From: Candidatus Heimdallarchaeum endolithica
GTDB taxonomy: Archaea > Asgardarchaeota > Heimdallarchaeia > Heimdallarchaeales > Heimdallarchaeaceae
Reading direction: 5' to 3'
NCBI GenBank assembly: GCA_021513715.1
Contig: CP084167.1
Span: 928,001-992,000 of the forward strand
Length of the DNA stretch: 64,000 nucleotides
Shown here: piece by piece, positions 4,186-10,537 of the stretch
How the letters are laid out: each line of letters starts with the position of its first letter
Position numbering within the stretch: position 1 is the stretch's first letter
Notes under the pieces: model-generated
Seen by the model: the letters and a program-made list of their open reading frames with translations, nothing else
What the model was told of the DNA's origin: nothing
Database searches by the model: none
Program-made: the position numbers and the translations under genes

Positions 4186-4656
4186 TTACTCATCGTCGTC
4201 GAATTTTACACCATACTTCCATATTTTATCTAGAACTTTCTCTTCTTCTACTGTTAATTCAGAGATAAGATTTTTAAGCCCTTTTAGGATTGCTTCATGT
4301 CTTTGAACTTCTCCTAAAATATTGTTAAGTATAGCTTTTGTTTTTTGATCTGTAATTTTATCAATAATAGCTTTATTCTGATTGATAATATTCCATTCAA
4401 GTTCAATTACTGTATCTAATGTTTTGAGAACATTTTCTTTTGTTTCTTCTGGTATTGCTTGATTTAGTCCTTGGGCCCTATCCAACAATCCTTTGAGTAT
4501 TGATATATGCTTCTTTGCATCTAATCCTATTCCGTTCATTAATGATTCAATAAGTGTATTTCCTACAGCAAAATCATAATATGTAAGTAAATCTGCAATT
4601 TTCTCCTTTATCTCTATCATTTGCCTTAATTGCACAATAAATGATTCTTTCTCCAT
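4186..4656 (-). CDS. Ferritin-like four-helix bundle protein
   Basis: Two helical repeats with E...DAKKH and ELE...EVQRH metal-ligand-like patterns. Confidence 0.6.
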   Translation of the reverse strand: MEKESFIVQLRQMIEIKEKIADLLTYYDFAVGNTLIESLMNGIGLDAKKHISILKGLLDRAQGLNQAIPEETKENVLKTLDTVIELEWNIINQNKAIIDKITDQKTKAILNNILGEVQRHEAILKGLKNLISELTVEEEKVLDKIWKYGVKFDDDE

Positions 4657-4880: not shown

Positions 4881-5798
4881 ATGAAGAAAGTTGTTTCTGT
4901 AAGTTTAGGTTCAAAAACAAGAGATTATAAGAGAGAATATGAACTTGGAGGAGAAAAAATTCAAGTTCAAAGAATAGGTACAGATGGTTCATTGAAAAAA
5001 TACAAAGAACTTCTCGAAAAATATGATGGAAAAATAGATGCTTTTGGTATCGGAGGATTTGATGCTTATCTTTGTAGAAAAAACAAGAAATACAAGATCA
5101 GAGATTTTTGGAAATTAGTAAAAAATGTCAAAAAAACGCCTTTTTTAGATGGGGGAGGAATAAAAAGTACATTAGAAAGTGAAATATTTCAGTTTGTAGA
5201 GAAAAAACTTCCTGAGGAAGTTGATGAAGATCGTTTTACTTTAGTTATGAGTGCTGTTGACCGCTGGGGGCAGGCTGAATCTGCTTGGAAATTCGTAAAC
5301 AAAAATAAAAAACTCATTACTTTTGGTGATCTTATCTGGGGATTAAAATTAGGAATTCCTTTACACTCACTAAAGACAGTAAATGCACTGGCAATATTTC
5401 TTACACCGATTGTAGTCAGACTACCATTCAGCATGCTCTATCCAACAGGGGATAAACAAACAGAGTTTAAGCCTTACAAAATCAAATATTTCAAGAAAGC
5501 TAAATTCATTGCAGGAGATTTCCATTTTATCAACAGAAACATGCCTAAGGAAGGAATGGAAGGAAAAATAATCATTACTAATACAACAACAGAAGAGAAT
5601 GTAGAACGACTAAAAGAATTAGGAGTAAAATACATCATCACTTCAACACCAAGAATAGAAGGGAGATCATTTGGAACAAATGTTCTTGAAGCGTGTATTG
5701 TTGCAATAAGCGAAAAGAATAGAGAACTAACAATGGAAGAGTATAGAGAATATCTGAAGAAGTTTAATATTGAACCCGTTATAGAGAAACTAAACTAA
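4881..5798 (+). CDS. Conserved protein of the family loosely annotated 'quinate 5-dehydrogenase' (function unverified)
   Basis: VVSVSLGS..RD, RIGTDG, DAFGIGG, DGGGIK.TLE, SAVDRWG, GDFHFI, ITNTTT, TPRIEGRSFGTNVLEA; family recognised from memory. Confidence 0.7.
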   Translation: MKKVVSVSLGSKTRDYKREYELGGEKIQVQRIGTDGSLKKYKELLEKYDGKIDAFGIGGFDAYLCRKNKKYKIRDFWKLVKNVKKTPFLDGGGIKSTLESEIFQFVEKKLPEEVDEDRFTLVMSAVDRWGQAESAWKFVNKNKKLITFGDLIWGLKLGIPLHSLKTVNALAIFLTPIVVRLPFSMLYPTGDKQTEFKPYKIKYFKKAKFIAGDFHFINRNMPKEGMEGKIIITNTTTEENVERLKELGVKYIITSTPRIEGRSFGTNVLEACIVAISEKNRELTMEEYREYLKKFNIEPVIEKLN

Positions 5799-5837
5799 CT
5801 CTCTTTTTTTCTAATTTTTTGTTTTTTTTGAGATTGA

Positions 5838-5947
5838 TAGTACTTCCGCAATAAGTTGACCGATTTCTATAGGTTAAAATTATAGGCGTTCATACTATCA
5901 TTGAGGTGTTCTCAATTCATACTTTATGAGATAATTCGGAAGTACTA
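5838..5947. mobile_element. MITE (110 bp, non-autonomous IS derivative)
   Basis: Perfect 11-bp terminal inverted repeats TAGTACTTCCG (5838-5848) / CGGAAGTACTA (5937-5947) flanked by 6-bp direct repeat GATTGA (5832-5837, 5948-5953). Confidence 0.8.
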
Positions 5948-5990
5948 GATTGAAGTGAAATATTTTTAAATTCACGCTAAAGAATAAATT

Positions 5991-6539
5991 ATGACCTCAG
6001 AATTTGTTACAAATTCTTTCTTTGGACTAGTTTTTGTTTTACCAGTATTCATGTGTAACGCTTTTGCAGGTTTTATGGGGGCTCTTTTCAAGAAATTAGG
6101 TAAAATTTATCCAATGGATGGAGGAAGAAAATGGAAAGATGGAAATCCTCTTTTAGGAGATCATAAGACTTGGCCGGGTTTTATAGGAGGATTAATCGCA
6201 GGTACGATAACTGGGATAATATTGTGGCATTACAATAACCTAAACTCTTTCTTTTTATGCAGTTATCCCTGGTATATAGGAATTCTGATGGGTGTAGGCG
6301 ATCATTTTGCTGATTTGATGGGTTCTTTCATAAAAAGAAGAATGGGAAAAAAAAGTGGTGCTTCACTTCCTCTATATGACCAAGGTTCATGGATGGTTAC
6401 AGGAGCACTTATAGCTTTACCTTTTTGTAAACCTATAGTATGGATTTACTACATCGTACCTATAGTTCTTACTCCATTGATTCACGTGATCGCTGGTTTT
6501 ATTGCTCTCTGGACAGGAATAAAAGATGTATGGTACTAA
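5991..6539 (+). CDS. carS: CDP-archaeol synthase (CDP-2,3-bis-O-geranylgeranyl-sn-glycerol synthase)
   Basis: P.F.CN, PMDGG..W.DG..LLGDHKTW.G, GD..GSFIKRRMG...G..LP.YDQ, TPLIH, IKDVW: characteristic DUF46/CarS motifs. Confidence 0.9.
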   Translation: MTSEFVTNSFFGLVFVLPVFMCNAFAGFMGALFKKLGKIYPMDGGRKWKDGNPLLGDHKTWPGFIGGLIAGTITGIILWHYNNLNSFFLCSYPWYIGILMGVGDHFADLMGSFIKRRMGKKSGASLPLYDQGSWMVTGALIALPFCKPIVWIYYIVPIVLTPLIHVIAGFIALWTGIKDVWY

Positions 6540-6621
6540 TTAGTAGAAACGAGTAAAACTGTTTTTGCTTTTATTTTATAGTTTCAAGTAATAATTTAAA
6601 AACTAGATAATTCATTAGAAC

Positions 6622-7425
6622 GTGAAAAAAATGAAATTTGATATTATTATTCTTGCTGGAAAATCAGATATGGATGAACCATTATTGAACTATTTTTCCG
6701 AGAAATATAATAAAAAATACGAGTCTAAAGTTTTAATAGAACATAATGGTGTTTCTTTTCTTAGACGCATATGTGATGTTTTACACGAGAGTCCATCAAT
6801 AGGCGATATTTACATTGCAGGATTAACAGAGAACGATATCGAACTACCTTATCCAGTTCACTTTTTAGATGTAGGTAAAGAAACTAGTACAATTGATAAG
6901 ATAGAATATTGGATTAATAATCATTTATCTAAAAAGGATCCTGTTCCAACTTTAGCCTTAATTATGAGTGGAGATATCCCAGCAGTAAAAACTGAACATA
7001 TTGAAGATTTCATAAACAAAATAAAAGATAAAGAATGTGACTTCCACTATGGAGTTGTAGAACAAACTGACATGGAAAGAGTTTTTCCTGGAAGTAATAG
7101 ATCTTATGCAAAACTAAAAGATGGTAACTTCTGCGGCTCTGATATATTTGGAATCAATCCCCAAACAATCCTAAAGTATTCTAAAACCTTTAGAGAACTA
7201 ACATCAAAGAGAAAAAGTTTCTTAAAACAAGCTTTCTTCGTCTCTCCTTTCAAATTCATCAAGATAGTTCTAAGACGTGCTACACTTCAAGAAGTAATCC
7301 ATATAGCAGAAAAAGCTTTAAAGATGAGTGTTGATATCCTAAGATTATCTTATCCAGAATTAGCAATGGATATAGATAAACCCTTCCAATATGAGATAGT
7401 AAAAAATTATTTGGAAAATGAATAG
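6622..7425 (+). CDS. MobA-like nucleotidyltransferase (NTP_transf_3 family)
   Basis: IIILAG N-terminus, SKVLI, MSGDIP, FPGSNRSY.KLKDG.FCG, C-terminal ELAMDIDKP. Confidence 0.8.
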   Translation: MKKMKFDIIILAGKSDMDEPLLNYFSEKYNKKYESKVLIEHNGVSFLRRICDVLHESPSIGDIYIAGLTENDIELPYPVHFLDVGKETSTIDKIEYWINNHLSKKDPVPTLALIMSGDIPAVKTEHIEDFINKIKDKECDFHYGVVEQTDMERVFPGSNRSYAKLKDGNFCGSDIFGINPQTILKYSKTFRELTSKRKSFLKQAFFVSPFKFIKIVLRRATLQEVIHIAEKALKMSVDILRLSYPELAMDIDKPFQYEIVKNYLENE

Positions 7426-7497
7426 CAAGTGTAAAAAGTAGAAAAAATTAAAATTTCAATTTCCAATTTTATACAAGAACTGGAAAGAAGATCAGAG

Positions 7498-8058
7498 ATG
7501 CCTAAAAGTAAATTTTTTCAAACGCTCTTAAAATATGATGAAGAAATATCTAGAAAAGTAGTTACCAGATTCAAACCCATACAAAAGGTACTAGGATTTA
7601 TCTCTCTTTCTGGAAATTCACAACCCTGGATTATTTTATCAACAGTTTTTTTTATTTTTAACGATTTTCTTACTCGTATTCAGAACCTTTCACAAGTAAT
7701 AGCAGTTCTTCTTTCTGCAAGTATAGTAGGAATAGTTAAAATGATTATAAAAAGAGAAAGACCCAATCATTTAATGGTTGAAGAATATATTGCAAAAGTA
7801 GACTACTACTCTTTTCCATCAGGACATAGCACACGAGCAATTGTTTTTTCTATAATAATAACTTACTATTACCCAGTTTTCGGCTGGATTTTCATCTTAT
7901 GGGGATTAATCATTGCTTTTACTCGAATCGCACTAGACCTCCACTATTTTTTTGATGTAATAACAGGAATCATTTTAGGAATATTTGGTGGAGTTTTAGG
8001 AATTTTTGTTTACCAAAAATTAGTAATAGTTTTGAGTGATTACTCTTTCTTCACCTAA
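7498..8058 (+). CDS. PAP2-family membrane lipid phosphatase
   Basis: K......RP (KMIIKRERP), FPSGH and TR.....H...D motifs. Confidence 0.9.
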   Translation: MPKSKFFQTLLKYDEEISRKVVTRFKPIQKVLGFISLSGNSQPWIILSTVFFIFNDFLTRIQNLSQVIAVLLSASIVGIVKMIIKRERPNHLMVEEYIAKVDYYSFPSGHSTRAIVFSIIITYYYPVFGWIFILWGLIIAFTRIALDLHYFFDVITGIILGIFGGVLGIFVYQKLVIVLSDYSFFT

Positions 8059-8123
8059 CAAATTTCAGCAAATATAAGTAAACAATTAGAGACATTTATT
8101 AACTTAAAAGATAATTATTCCTC

Positions 8124-9053
8124 ATGCTAAAGAGAACAGAAGAATTTACGCTAGAAGATTTTAAAGACAAAGATTTGCTAGTTTATGACCCCTTTTACGA
8201 TAAAAGGATAAATATTCCCATTAGAAGAGGAGGAACAACTTATAATGTTAGTTTAATAGATATGAATGAAAAACCTCTTCATCCTGACTGGACTGTTATA
8301 TGTGTTCACGGTTGGGGTTCAAATGCACTAAATTATCGTTTTGTTTTAAAGTACCTTTCTCCTTACTACAGAGTAATAGCTTATGATCTTAAAGGTCACG
8401 GAGAATCAGATAAAGATGAAGATACTTATGATTTAGGGTTGTTTACTGAAGAGTTGGCTCAAATTATTAATCATTTTAACCCTAACAATTTAGTCTTAAT
8501 TGGACATAGTATGGGGACAGCAATAGTTATGAATTATGTCTATTTAAATCCAAGAAAAATAAAAGCAATAGCACTTGTTTCTTCTTCTGCTGATTTTGAA
8601 AAACCTTTACCTCGTATTGTTCCTCTAGTTTTTTCTAAAGTAGATGAAAGGCTCAAGAATGCTTTAATTCACACGGGAATGGCTCTATGCGTGACCAAAG
8701 ATTGCCCTAAGATTTTATTAGATATTCTTCGAGAACAAAATAAAAGAACCCCCTACGAAGTTTACAGAAAAGCGCTTTTGAATACCATTTATCCGTGGAA
8801 AAAAGATGAAGACCTGAATAAAATAAAAGAGCCAACACTAATTATGGTTGGAGACAAAGACATCGTAACTCCTGTCTCAAATTCTGAAAAACTAAACAAA
8901 CTAATTCCTAACTCCAGACTTCTAATAATTCCTAATGCTGGACATTCCGTCCTAATTGAAAAAGGAAAACATGCCGCACTTCTATTGTTAGAGTTTGTAG
9001 AATTTATAAGAGAGCAAGAACAAGCAAAACAAAAAGAAGAAAGAAAGGAATGA
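8124..9053 (+). CDS. Alpha/beta hydrolase
   Basis: HGWG oxyanion loop, DLKGHGES, nucleophile GHSMG, GDKD, AGH. Confidence 0.9.
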   Translation: MLKRTEEFTLEDFKDKDLLVYDPFYDKRINIPIRRGGTTYNVSLIDMNEKPLHPDWTVICVHGWGSNALNYRFVLKYLSPYYRVIAYDLKGHGESDKDEDTYDLGLFTEELAQIINHFNPNNLVLIGHSMGTAIVMNYVYLNPRKIKAIALVSSSADFEKPLPRIVPLVFSKVDERLKNALIHTGMALCVTKDCPKILLDILREQNKRTPYEVYRKALLNTIYPWKKDEDLNKIKEPTLIMVGDKDIVTPVSNSEKLNKLIPNSRLLIIPNAGHSVLIEKGKHAALLLLEFVEFIREQEQAKQKEERKE

Positions 9054-9067
9054 AAAAATAAAAGTTA

Positions 9068-10537
9068 TTATTCTTCTGAATTGATTTTAGGAATAACTTC
9101 GATTTTTTCTTTTTCATCTATTACTATAGGCTCTTTGAAACTTATCCAGTAAGTCTTGTTCATTATTGTATCGACATCTAATCTGTTTGAAACTTCTTTT
9201 GTTCCCAAACTTGCTAATCTTACAATAAACCACTCAAAACTGTATTTGAAGTTTTTCTTGCTCCACGCAACAATCAACAAATGGTAGCAATAAGTTACAA
9301 AAAGAGCCACTAAGAGAACATATCCTGCTTTTTCATAAGGAAGCTTATCTCTAACTAAGTCATCGTCGACAAGAAAACTGAATATCCAACGAGGAAGCAA
9401 AGAGAAAATCTGGAGTGAATAAACTGTCAGAGCTACTATTCCCCATAGCCTCATTGTTCGCACAAATCTTCTATTTGCAAACTTTTCAGGATTTCCTTTA
9501 TATTCTACATAGTTTAGTAATAAAGCTACTACTCCGATCCAAGCAAAAAGAAGAAACATAAAATAAGAAAGATTAGGTCTATTCCAAGTAAAATCAAAGC
9601 GAACTAATGGATCTTTTGTTATTTCACCGACAACCAACAAGATTCCTCCTAAAATCGCAAAACCTAAACTTGTCATCCCTAAATATTGTGGAATTTTATT
9701 TGAGGGTTTAGGTTTAGCTAGTAGTATCCCTATTATTGAACCAATAAATGATACAGATAAGAAGGGGAATAAGGGTTCTAAATCTCCTGTAAGAACAACA
9801 AAAATATAAGTTACAAAGTTGTGATAACTTCGAGCTGTCCCTTCGTTAGGCCATATAGGATAAAGAGGATCAATTAACCTCCAAATTGGATAACTTAAAG
9901 CTAAGATAGCAAAAGTTAATCCAGCATAAACAAGAATATTACGTTTAATCTTCAAATATCCTTTGTTTTTAATTAGAAAATAGTGAACAATACCATTAAT
10001 TATCATACACCAACCGATTGCTTGCAAAGTCTCCATTGTAAAGAAAGCCCTACCAAATCTTTGCCAGAAATCTTCTACTGTGTGAATAGCCCAAGGTGTA
10101 GTTCCTTTTGATCTTATTGAAGAACCAATGTATCCATAGTAAAACAATCCTTCTGTAATTGCTCCTACAATCAGTAATCCCACGCCTGTAAGTATCTGTT
10201 TAGCTAAAATTTTATTAGGGTCATATCCTTTTGCTGCTTTTTTAGTCATAGCCAAAACGTTAACTATAGCTGAAATTAAGAGAAAATAACCTGCCCACCC
10301 ACTTAAAAAAGCTAATAGAAAAACACTAATAATAATGAGTGGACTCTTTTGTAAAAGCTGGTCAATGTTAGTAGCCCAAGAAATATCATAAATGTGTTGT
10401 ATTTCATGTAAAACAACCATCATAAAAATCGCCAACCCTCTCTGAAAGTCTAGAGAGGCTATTCTTTTCATTTGTTTTATTTCATTCATTTCAACTGATT
10501 CTTTTGTTAAATTTGACATTTTACGCTCTCTTTTCAA
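9068..10537 (-). CDS. Multi-pass membrane protein, HGSNAT/DUF1624-like acyltransferase domain
   Basis: RIASLDFQRGLAIFMMVVLH, ETLQAIG, PLFPFL; many TM helices; true start may be a downstream Met. Confidence 0.7.
   Translation of the reverse strand: MKRERKMSNLTKESVEMNEIKQMKRIASLDFQRGLAIFMMVVLHEIQHIYDISWATNIDQLLQKSPLIIISVFLLAFLSGWAGYFLLISAIVNVLAMTKKAAKGYDPNKILAKQILTGVGLLIVGAITEGLFYYGYIGSSIRSKGTTPWAIHTVEDFWQRFGRAFFTMETLQAIGWCMIINGIVHYFLIKNKGYLKIKRNILVYAGLTFAILALSYPIWRLIDPLYPIWPNEGTARSYHNFVTYIFVVLTGDLEPLFPFLSVSFIGSIIGILLAKPKPSNKIPQYLGMTSLGFAILGGILLVVGEITKDPLVRFDFTWNRPNLSYFMFLLFAWIGVVALLLNYVEYKGNPEKFANRRFVRTMRLWGIVALTVYSLQIFSLLPRWIFSFLVDDDLVRDKLPYEKAGYVLLVALFVTYCYHLLIVAWSKKNFKYSFEWFIVRLASLGTKEVSNRLDVDTIMNKTYWISFKEPIVIDEKEKIEVIPKINSEE

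Follow-up and report, generated by a model that had tools for sequence, protein, structure and literature searches.

A described counterpart of one of the genes considered here is found in Caulobacter, where CpgD, a CTP:phosphoglycerate cytidylyltransferase, takes part in the synthesis of ceramide-diphosphoglycerate (PMC12275187). In that precedent the cytidylyltransferase makes the donor of a lipid head group, and a separate enzyme is proposed to carry out the transfer (PMC12275187). The locus described here lies at 4881–9053 of a 64,000-nucleotide stretch of the genome of Candidatus Heimdallarchaeum endolithica (G000:C1:928001-992000, referred to below as the window), a genome that consists of a single contig of 3.33 Mb. 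It encodes a protein of the family named 'quinate 5-dehydrogenase' (here Q5DH), a paralogue of CDP-archaeol synthase (CarS2), a nucleotidyltransferase related to TTHA0179 of Thermus thermophilus (here NTP), a PAP2 enzyme and an alpha/beta hydrolase (here ABH). The genes for Q5DH, NTP and PAP2 very likely form a functional module that is common to many bacteria and to one order of the Heimdallarchaeia. As to its role, we tentatively favor CTP activation, hand-over and phosphate removal, directed at a lipid phosphate or polar head group of the membrane, a reading placed at somewhat short of an even chance.

Each of the proteins can be set beside a described relative. CpgD and the window NTP are both soluble and of a GT-A-type fold, and the gene for CpgD is part of a lipid locus. 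CpgD is a COG1213 protein similar to IMPCT (4JD0), whereas the window NTP belongs to the TTHA0179 family and has a distinct C-terminal subdomain; unlike the window NTP, CpgD has no described PAP2 or AAR-fold (acyl-ACP reductase fold) partner. The initial annotation of this locus, made from the sequence alone, had named CpgD as a precedent – the enzyme is real and is a cytidylyltransferase, but it is of a different subfamily. TTHA0179 itself (2dpw), which is of the same family as the window NTP, is a 'hypothetical transferase' from structural genomics. The PAP2 enzymes BcrC/YbjG/SepP, PgpB and LpxE are similar in size to the cassette PAP2, have several transmembrane segments and share its three motifs; the cassette enzyme differs in that a nucleotidyltransferase is translationally coupled or fused to it. 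To our knowledge no such coupling or fusion has been described for any of them. The CarS proteins of A. pernix (5GUF) and A. fulgidus, multi-spanning proteins of ca. 180 aa, align over their full length with the window copy. Q5DH shares a two-domain fold over ca. 250 residues with the acyl-ACP reductase AAR (6jzq) and with the terminal amidation domain (TAD) of a nonribosomal peptide synthetase (9e4s; bioRxiv 10.1101/2024.10.28.620694), and is often fused to, or found beside, true AAR homologues.

Conservation of the cassette in archaea and bacteria

All five genes are on the plus strand, as the initial annotation had them: Q5DH at 4881..5798 (305 aa), carS2 at 5991..6539, NTP at 6622..7425 (267 aa, with an alternative ATG start at 6631), PAP2 at 7498..8058 and the hydrolase at 8124..9053. 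With intergenic gaps of 193, 83, 73 and 66 bp, the genes are co-oriented yet loosely packed.

The gene order is the same in Candidatus Heimdallarchaeum aukensis PM71 (G001), the closest relative of the window genome in the collections, and the proteins are 88–98% identical. Searches with the window proteins (tblastn) found the cassette in the Heimdallarchaeaceae (f1) in the genera g1 (Heimdallarchaeum), g2 and g4, in the order Q5DH–NTP–PAP2, in some cases followed by the hydrolase, and with a homologue of the 4186..4656 gene on the minus strand before it. Outside this family, the same searches found NTP–PAP2 pairs in f3 and f4, and f3 also has Q5DH–NTP pairs at a second locus. No divergent kinase-like gene was seen at the f3 and f4 loci, whose neighbouring genes were compared with the window proteins. 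The Q5DH family is present in 20 of the 201 Asgard genomes sampled, all 20 from f1, f3 and f4, and the trio is found among these archaea only in the order that contains the Heimdallarchaeaceae.

The bacterial side was represented by 80 metagenome loci with a Q5DH homologue, recovered with the family alignment and located on apparently bacterial contigs. NTP was scored in the 51 loci with at least 850 bp downstream and PAP2 in the 42 loci with at least 1.5 kb. NTP is present in 32 and PAP2 in 28 of these, always in the order Q5DH–NTP–PAP2, with a median gap of 12.5 bp between Q5DH and NTP and of −4 bp between NTP and PAP2. In total, PAP2 stands beside NTP in 11 Heimdallarchaeia loci and 28 metagenome loci, and there are two proteins in which NTP_transf_3 and PAP2 domains are fused (P0158, 495 aa; P0211, 423 aa). 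A linkage between the Q5DH and NTP families, which the initial annotation had put forward, is real – the two are adjacent in all Heimdallarchaeia loci of f1 and f3 that were inspected, as they are in the majority of metagenome loci with sufficient flank. The arrangement is not due to chance, since the order recurs in H. aukensis and, without carS, across the family and on bacteria-like contigs. It is the conserved order, the overlapping start and stop codons and the existence of fusions that make a functional module very likely. The plasmid collection, searched with tblastn, had no match.

In the Q5DH tree, the f1 copies fall beside a bacterial clade with an AAR partner, and the f3 and f4 copies fall at the base of a clade with an NTP–PAP2 context. 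In the NTP tree, the bacterial cassette enzymes form one clade and those of the Heimdallarchaeia several others; the f1 cassette enzymes are of two lineages, alpha and beta, and g2 holds both, as Q5DH–NTPbeta–NTPalpha–PAP2. Both trees are unrooted, and the direction of any transfer cannot be read from them. A simple transfer of the whole block from a single bacterial donor was considered and is not supported, because the Q5DH of f1 and of f3/f4 lie in different clades that contain bacteria and because the cassette NTPs within f1 are themselves of two lineages.

The three proteins of the module

The NTP of the window is a GT-A nucleotidyltransferase and, judging from its structural model, probably a cytidylyltransferase. 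The profile of its family matches TTHA0179 over the full length (positions 4–248) with an E value of 4e-58. Its AlphaFold2 model has a predicted local distance difference test (pLDDT) score of 95, and the best Foldseek match is 2dpw (E 1.5e-18, TM 0.77/0.88, root-mean-square deviation 2.9), followed by KdsB, NeuA, IspD and GlmU. IMPCT, the relative of CpgD, is not among the best 60 of 117 profile matches or the best 50 of at least 500 Foldseek matches, and the similarity seen among these matches is that of GT-A cytidylyltransferases in general. No PAP2 family match was found in the Thermus thermophilus control genome, so the set of partners is different there.

The initial annotation called this enzyme MobA-like. 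That it is a true MobA/MocA or CobY cofactor nucleotidyltransferase, in a cluster concerned with a cofactor, is extremely unlikely. There are weak matches to NTP_transf_3 (PF12804) and to the NCBIfam MobA model (NF001457), and some homologues have been automatically named MobA or CobY, but both scores fall well short of the cut-offs (19.2 bits against a gathering score of 27, and 18.5 against 164) and a C-terminal subdomain of 100 residues is shared with TTHA0179 and not with MobA. Nor were molybdopterin or cobamide genes found among the neighbours at 1–16 kb of the window, or molybdopterin genes at the loci of relatives. The expansion of the family, to at least six matches per Heimdallarchaeia genome, often in tandem, also speaks against it; overall the family comprises 1,193 representative clusters.

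Genus g4 has tandem arrays of up to four NTPs of the TTHA0179 family (L030:7759-12045 and L031:6552-11970). The window genome has a single such copy, at L032:9271-10146 (541 kb). These copies are flanked by genes for a LigB-like protein, a nitroreductase and a 227-aa protein with multiple transmembrane segments, and also by repeated genes for proteins of ca. 318 aa that resemble surface proteins with a signal anchor and a C-terminal transmembrane anchor.

The third gene of the trio encodes an integral-membrane PAP2 phosphatase or phosphotransferase. It belongs to the PAP2 superfamily by its match to PF01569 (72 bits) and by the three motifs of that superfamily (KxxxxxxRP, PSGH and SRxxxxxHxxxD), which occur in the translation as KMIIKRERP, PSGH and TRIALDLHYFFD, the last with T in place of the S. 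Ca. five hydrophobic segments are predicted. Its closest NCBIfam matches, all with low scores, are undecaprenyl-diphosphatases, PgpB and LpxE.

The Q5DH family has more than 7,400 homologues, and identity to proteins of Thermoanaerobacter and others is ca. 50%. Two alpha/beta domains make up the AlphaFold2 model (pLDDT 93); the top fold match is AAR (6jzq, Z 13.7, 248 residues aligned) and the second is the carmabin TAD (9e4s, Z 12.1), with periplasmic-binding-protein/LacI folds at Z ca. 9. Comparison with Pfam and NCBIfam at E ≤ 0.01 gave no match, including to the shikimate/quinate dehydrogenase domains and PF01488. No cysteine occurs among the invariant or near-invariant columns of the family, its consensus has no GxGxxG, and hhalign gave a probability of 1% against true AAR homologues. 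The protein was therefore rejected as a true dehydrogenase and, by sequence and catalytic residues, as a member of the AAR family. The name 'quinate 5-dehydrogenase' seems to have been acquired from fusions and neighbours that carry PF01488.

These fusions and neighbours show that members of the Q5DH family partner either an acyl-reductase or an NTP enzyme. At least 25 clusters combine Q5DH with PF01488, and two combine it with an aminotransferase (PF00155). A second bacterial context ('type B'), found in 13 of the metagenome loci, consists of genes for a helix-turn-helix (HTH) regulator, Q5DH and an AAR homologue, followed by greA and lysS, and here the AAR homologue matches 6jzq with an E value of 2e-40. 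At several type-B loci (L038, L042, L043, L073, L081, L096 and others) the order begins with dus and the HTH protein is of ca. 185 aa. Together, the fold and the fusion partners of Q5DH point to acyl-reductase-type chemistry or to ligand binding, and not to a known transferase.

An alternative is that the module acts on an acyl-derived tail or a small molecule. Q5DH would then be a non-catalytic or ligand-binding relative of AAR that teams up either with an AAR-like reductase (at times with an aminotransferase too) or with NTP, to modify a compound of fatty-acyl origin such as an aldehyde, an amine or an acyl-nucleotide, and not the head group of a phospholipid. The AAR fold, the type-B loci, the fusion clusters and the grouping of the f1 Q5DH with the bacterial type-B clade are all consistent with this, as are NTP paralogues located beside DegV fatty-acid-binding proteins and the presence of nine DegV genes in the window genome. 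We nevertheless consider it quite unlikely. The family lacks the conserved cysteine, the GxGxxG and any profile-level homology to AAR; no PF01553 (PlsC-type) acyltransferase was found in the window genome; and the translational coupling of a membrane PAP2 to NTP argues for a phosphorylated lipid as the substrate.

CarS2 and its place in the cassette

The window CarS has the features of a CTP-transferase enzyme and is probably active as one, judging from its conserved residues. It scores 97 bits against PF01864 (cut-off 22), and alignment to A. pernix CarS shows that it has kept both CTP-transferase signatures (LLGD.KT..G and GSF.KRR.G...G...P..DQ), here as LLGDHKT..G and GSFIKRRMG..G..LPLYDQ. 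Its score against the NCBIfam CarS equivalog (NF003114) is 123.5, below the cut-off of 148, while against the CdsA-type Pfam family PF01148 it is above the cut-off (31.6 against 24).

It is not the only CarS of the genome. A second copy is encoded at G000:C1:3125603-3126103 (L033), with 131 bits against 96 for the window copy. Among 47 genomes of the order, those of f1 have up to four CarS matches each, and nearly all of those of f2–f4 have one. A maximum-likelihood tree contains three clades specific to f1, CarS1, CarS2 and CarS3 (support 100/99 and 98/95). The window copy falls in CarS2, whose sister clade is CarS3 (98/95), and all three clades are co-orthologous to the single copy of f2–f4. 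Each paralogue has a conserved neighbourhood of its own (L033, L116-L130).

The initial annotation proposed a lipid pathway built around carS. That part of the proposal fails, as carS is a paralogue inserted into the cassette in one genus and the bacterial cassettes of the metagenome loci are without CarS. A carS gene stands between the Q5DH and NTP genes only in the window genome and H. aukensis; in g2, g3 and g4 the orthologues of CarS2 are found at another site, with FeoB, an aminotransferase and a PAS-domain protein as neighbours. In both Heimdallarchaeum species the Q5DH gene is followed by three T-runs and carS is preceded by an AT-rich box. In the window, the T-rich stretch (5799..5830, plus strand; T7, T6 and T8 after the Q5DH stop) reads as a probable archaeal terminator, and the TATA-like box is ca. 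27 bp upstream of carS. Between the two lies a miniature inverted-repeat transposable element (MITE) of 110 bp (5838-5947; 5832..5953 in all), whose terminal inverted repeats are of 11 bp (TAGTACTTCCG/CGGAAGTACTA) and whose target duplication is GATTGA. The element lies 43 bp upstream of carS, and the alignment to H. aukensis reveals an empty site there, so that the insertion is recent.

The placement of carS could be incidental: the module would have a function of its own, and CarS2 would have landed here by local rearrangement, in a genus with active small mobile elements, and would be a partly redundant CDP-archaeol synthase with no metabolic tie to its neighbours. The other conserved context of its orthologues, the restriction of the arrangement to two genomes, the T-runs and separate TATA-like box, the lack of CarS in bacterial cassettes and a polymorphic MITE in the same gap all favor this. 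On the other side, strand and order have been kept, and both species still carry the gene (98% identity). The slot taken by CarS2 in g1 is the position of NTPbeta in g2, a second NTP paralogue. In addition, at least four g4 genomes have CarS3 beside a different NTP paralogue and a gene that is ABH-like, which means that a pairing of CarS with NTP arose at least twice. On balance an incidental placement is somewhat unlikely.

CarS2 and PAP2 could also both belong to the recycling or salvage of polyprenyl phosphates. Dolichol and phytol kinases are members of the CdsA/CarS (CTP-transferase) superfamily. CarS2 would be a CTP-dependent prenol kinase and not a CDP-archaeol synthase, PAP2 a phosphatase of polyprenyl or dolichyl diphosphate of the BcrC/YbjG/DOLPP1 type, and NTP and Q5DH would work in the same carrier-lipid cycle. 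The score of CarS2 above the PF01148 cut-off fits, and the top NCBIfam matches of PAP2 are undecaprenyl-diphosphatases, SepP (48.3) and PRK11837 (YbjG/BcrC; 36.6), though both are far below the equivalog cut-offs of 250 and 229. Neighbours in relatives and bacteria that resemble geranylgeranyl reductase (GGR-like) or CrtI, or that match Caroten_synth, fit as well. Yet the alignment of CarS2 with CarS is full-length, the cycle has no role for a soluble nucleotidyltransferase or an AAR-fold protein, and it explains the NTP–PAP2 fusions and translational coupling no better than does the action on a lipid head group or lipid phosphate favored here. A polyprenyl-phosphate cycle is judged unlikely.

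Possible role in membrane lipid metabolism

The favored reading – CTP activation, hand-over and phosphate removal on a membrane lipid phosphate or polar head group – divides the work among the proteins as follows, with substrates and step order that we infer. NTP would make a CMP- or CDP-linked intermediate. Q5DH, cytosolic and not a dehydrogenase, would bind or present a hydrophobic or phosphorylated partner. PAP2 would act at the membrane, where it would either remove phosphate from the lipid product or substrate or serve as a His-phosphotransferase. In the Heimdallarchaeaceae the hydrolase may trim the product, and CarS2, in its own terminator and promoter context, may feed or use an isoprenoid ether-lipid phosphate and so tie the module to it.

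A bolder version of the same idea dispenses with a CDP-alcohol phosphotransferase altogether. Sphingomyelin synthase and LpxT act as His-phosphotransferases. NTP with its coupled or fused PAP2 could by analogy be a new system of head-group transfer, in which NTP makes a CDP-linked donor, PAP2 moves the phospho-group to a lipid as a His-phosphotransferase and the AAR-fold protein delivers that lipid; the Heimdallarchaeia would share this system with bacteria and would have multiplied it and wired it to extra CarS paralogues. This version is a long shot.

The links of the cassette to lipids are circumstantial. They consist of PAP2, of the CarS paralogues and of the DegV, GGR-like and CrtI-like neighbours of NTP genes. 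In g4, CarS3 and an NTP paralogue are 1–3.5 kb apart, and with them are an ABH-like gene, three tandem DegV genes or two CrtI-like genes. In f3, a GGR-like flavoprotein is encoded directly before NTP–PAP2, and several bacterial loci have an adjacent gene for a Caroten_synth membrane protein. The fold of Q5DH, too, matches that of an enzyme that handles acyl chains. The window genome has four PAP2 genes and two CDP-alcohol phosphatidyltransferases. Four of its DegV (fatty-acid-binding, FakB-like) genes are clustered at G000:C1:3260915-3267428, and the rest are at five other sites.

Several points weigh against a lipid head-group function. The trio is divided between two loci in f3 and f4. carS lies within the cassette in two sister genomes only, after the terminator-like T-tract. 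The module includes no CDP-alcohol phosphotransferase, and the two of the genome are far away. Q5DH is most often fused to, or found beside, an AAR-type reductase or an aminotransferase, and not NTP or PAP2, so that its chemistry may be on acyl, aldehyde or amine groups. Hydropathy of the window PAP2 and of the fusion proteins is ambiguous as to how many helices precede the first motif, and does not assign the active site to one side of the membrane. The genomes that supply the lipid-related neighbours are related to one another, so that these observations are not independent. Finally, literature searches turned up no substrate for members of the Q5DH and TTHA0179 families and no publication on the cassette, on TTHA0179 and its neighbours, or on CarS or DegV of the Heimdallarchaeia.

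Of the lipid pathway put forward in the initial annotation, what survives is a conserved and probably lipid-related module; carS as its center and the assignment of steps to enzymes (activation of a head group by NTP, its transfer by Q5DH, maturation of the lipid by PAP2 and the hydrolase) are not supported. Neither of the objections that the annotation raised against itself, a lack of linkage and a true molybdopterin guanylyltransferase, was borne out. The cassette is a good but unproven lead to a novel membrane-lipid pathway. The Q5DH–NTP–PAP2 trio is large and widespread, none of its members is known to have a studied function, and the usual annotation is misleading – the Q5DH family are not quinate dehydrogenases and the NTP family are not MobA. 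If the trio does act on membrane lipids, many bacteria would have a new set of enzymes for phospholipid or polyprenyl-phosphate metabolism. If the NTP/PAP2 transfer system exists as well, enzymes of a bacterial type for head groups would be mixed with the ether-lipid cores of archaea in just those archaea that are closest to eukaryotes. With triplicated CarS, multiplied NTP and many DegV, the Heimdallarchaeaceae are a concrete place in which to test the question of the lipid divide.

The remaining genes at the locus are conserved to different extents. The hydrolase is a member of the alpha/beta hydrolases (Abhydrolase_1, 120.7 bits) with a GxSxG nucleophile elbow, here GHSMG. In g1, g2 and one g4 genome it follows PAP2 (53–95% identity), and it is absent from the bacterial cassettes of the metagenome loci. 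Upstream of the cassette are an ABC-2-type exporter and a gene at 4186..4656 on the minus strand, which encodes a helical protein of 156 aa with no Pfam match. This gene is divergent from the cassette, and its homologues are kept in that position beside the Q5DH gene in g1, g2 and g4 (53–96% identity; L015, L016, L017, L025, L034). The two genes may share a promoter region.

Five proteins encoded next to NTP and CarS paralogues (c3, c4, c10, c35 and c36) were tried as distant relatives of Q5DH, DegV or NTP and rejected, all with hhalign probabilities of ca. 1% or less; c3 resembles an alpha/beta hydrolase by eye. At the downstream end, a multi-spanning protein of 489 aa with a weak match to HGSNAT_cat (DUF1624-type acyltransferase) is encoded at 9068-10537 on the minus strand, convergent with the hydrolase gene, and occupies this position in genus g1 only. 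In g2 and g4 the cassette is followed instead by a PmbA/TldD metallopeptidase pair (482 and 453 aa; L016, L025, L034), which the window lacks.

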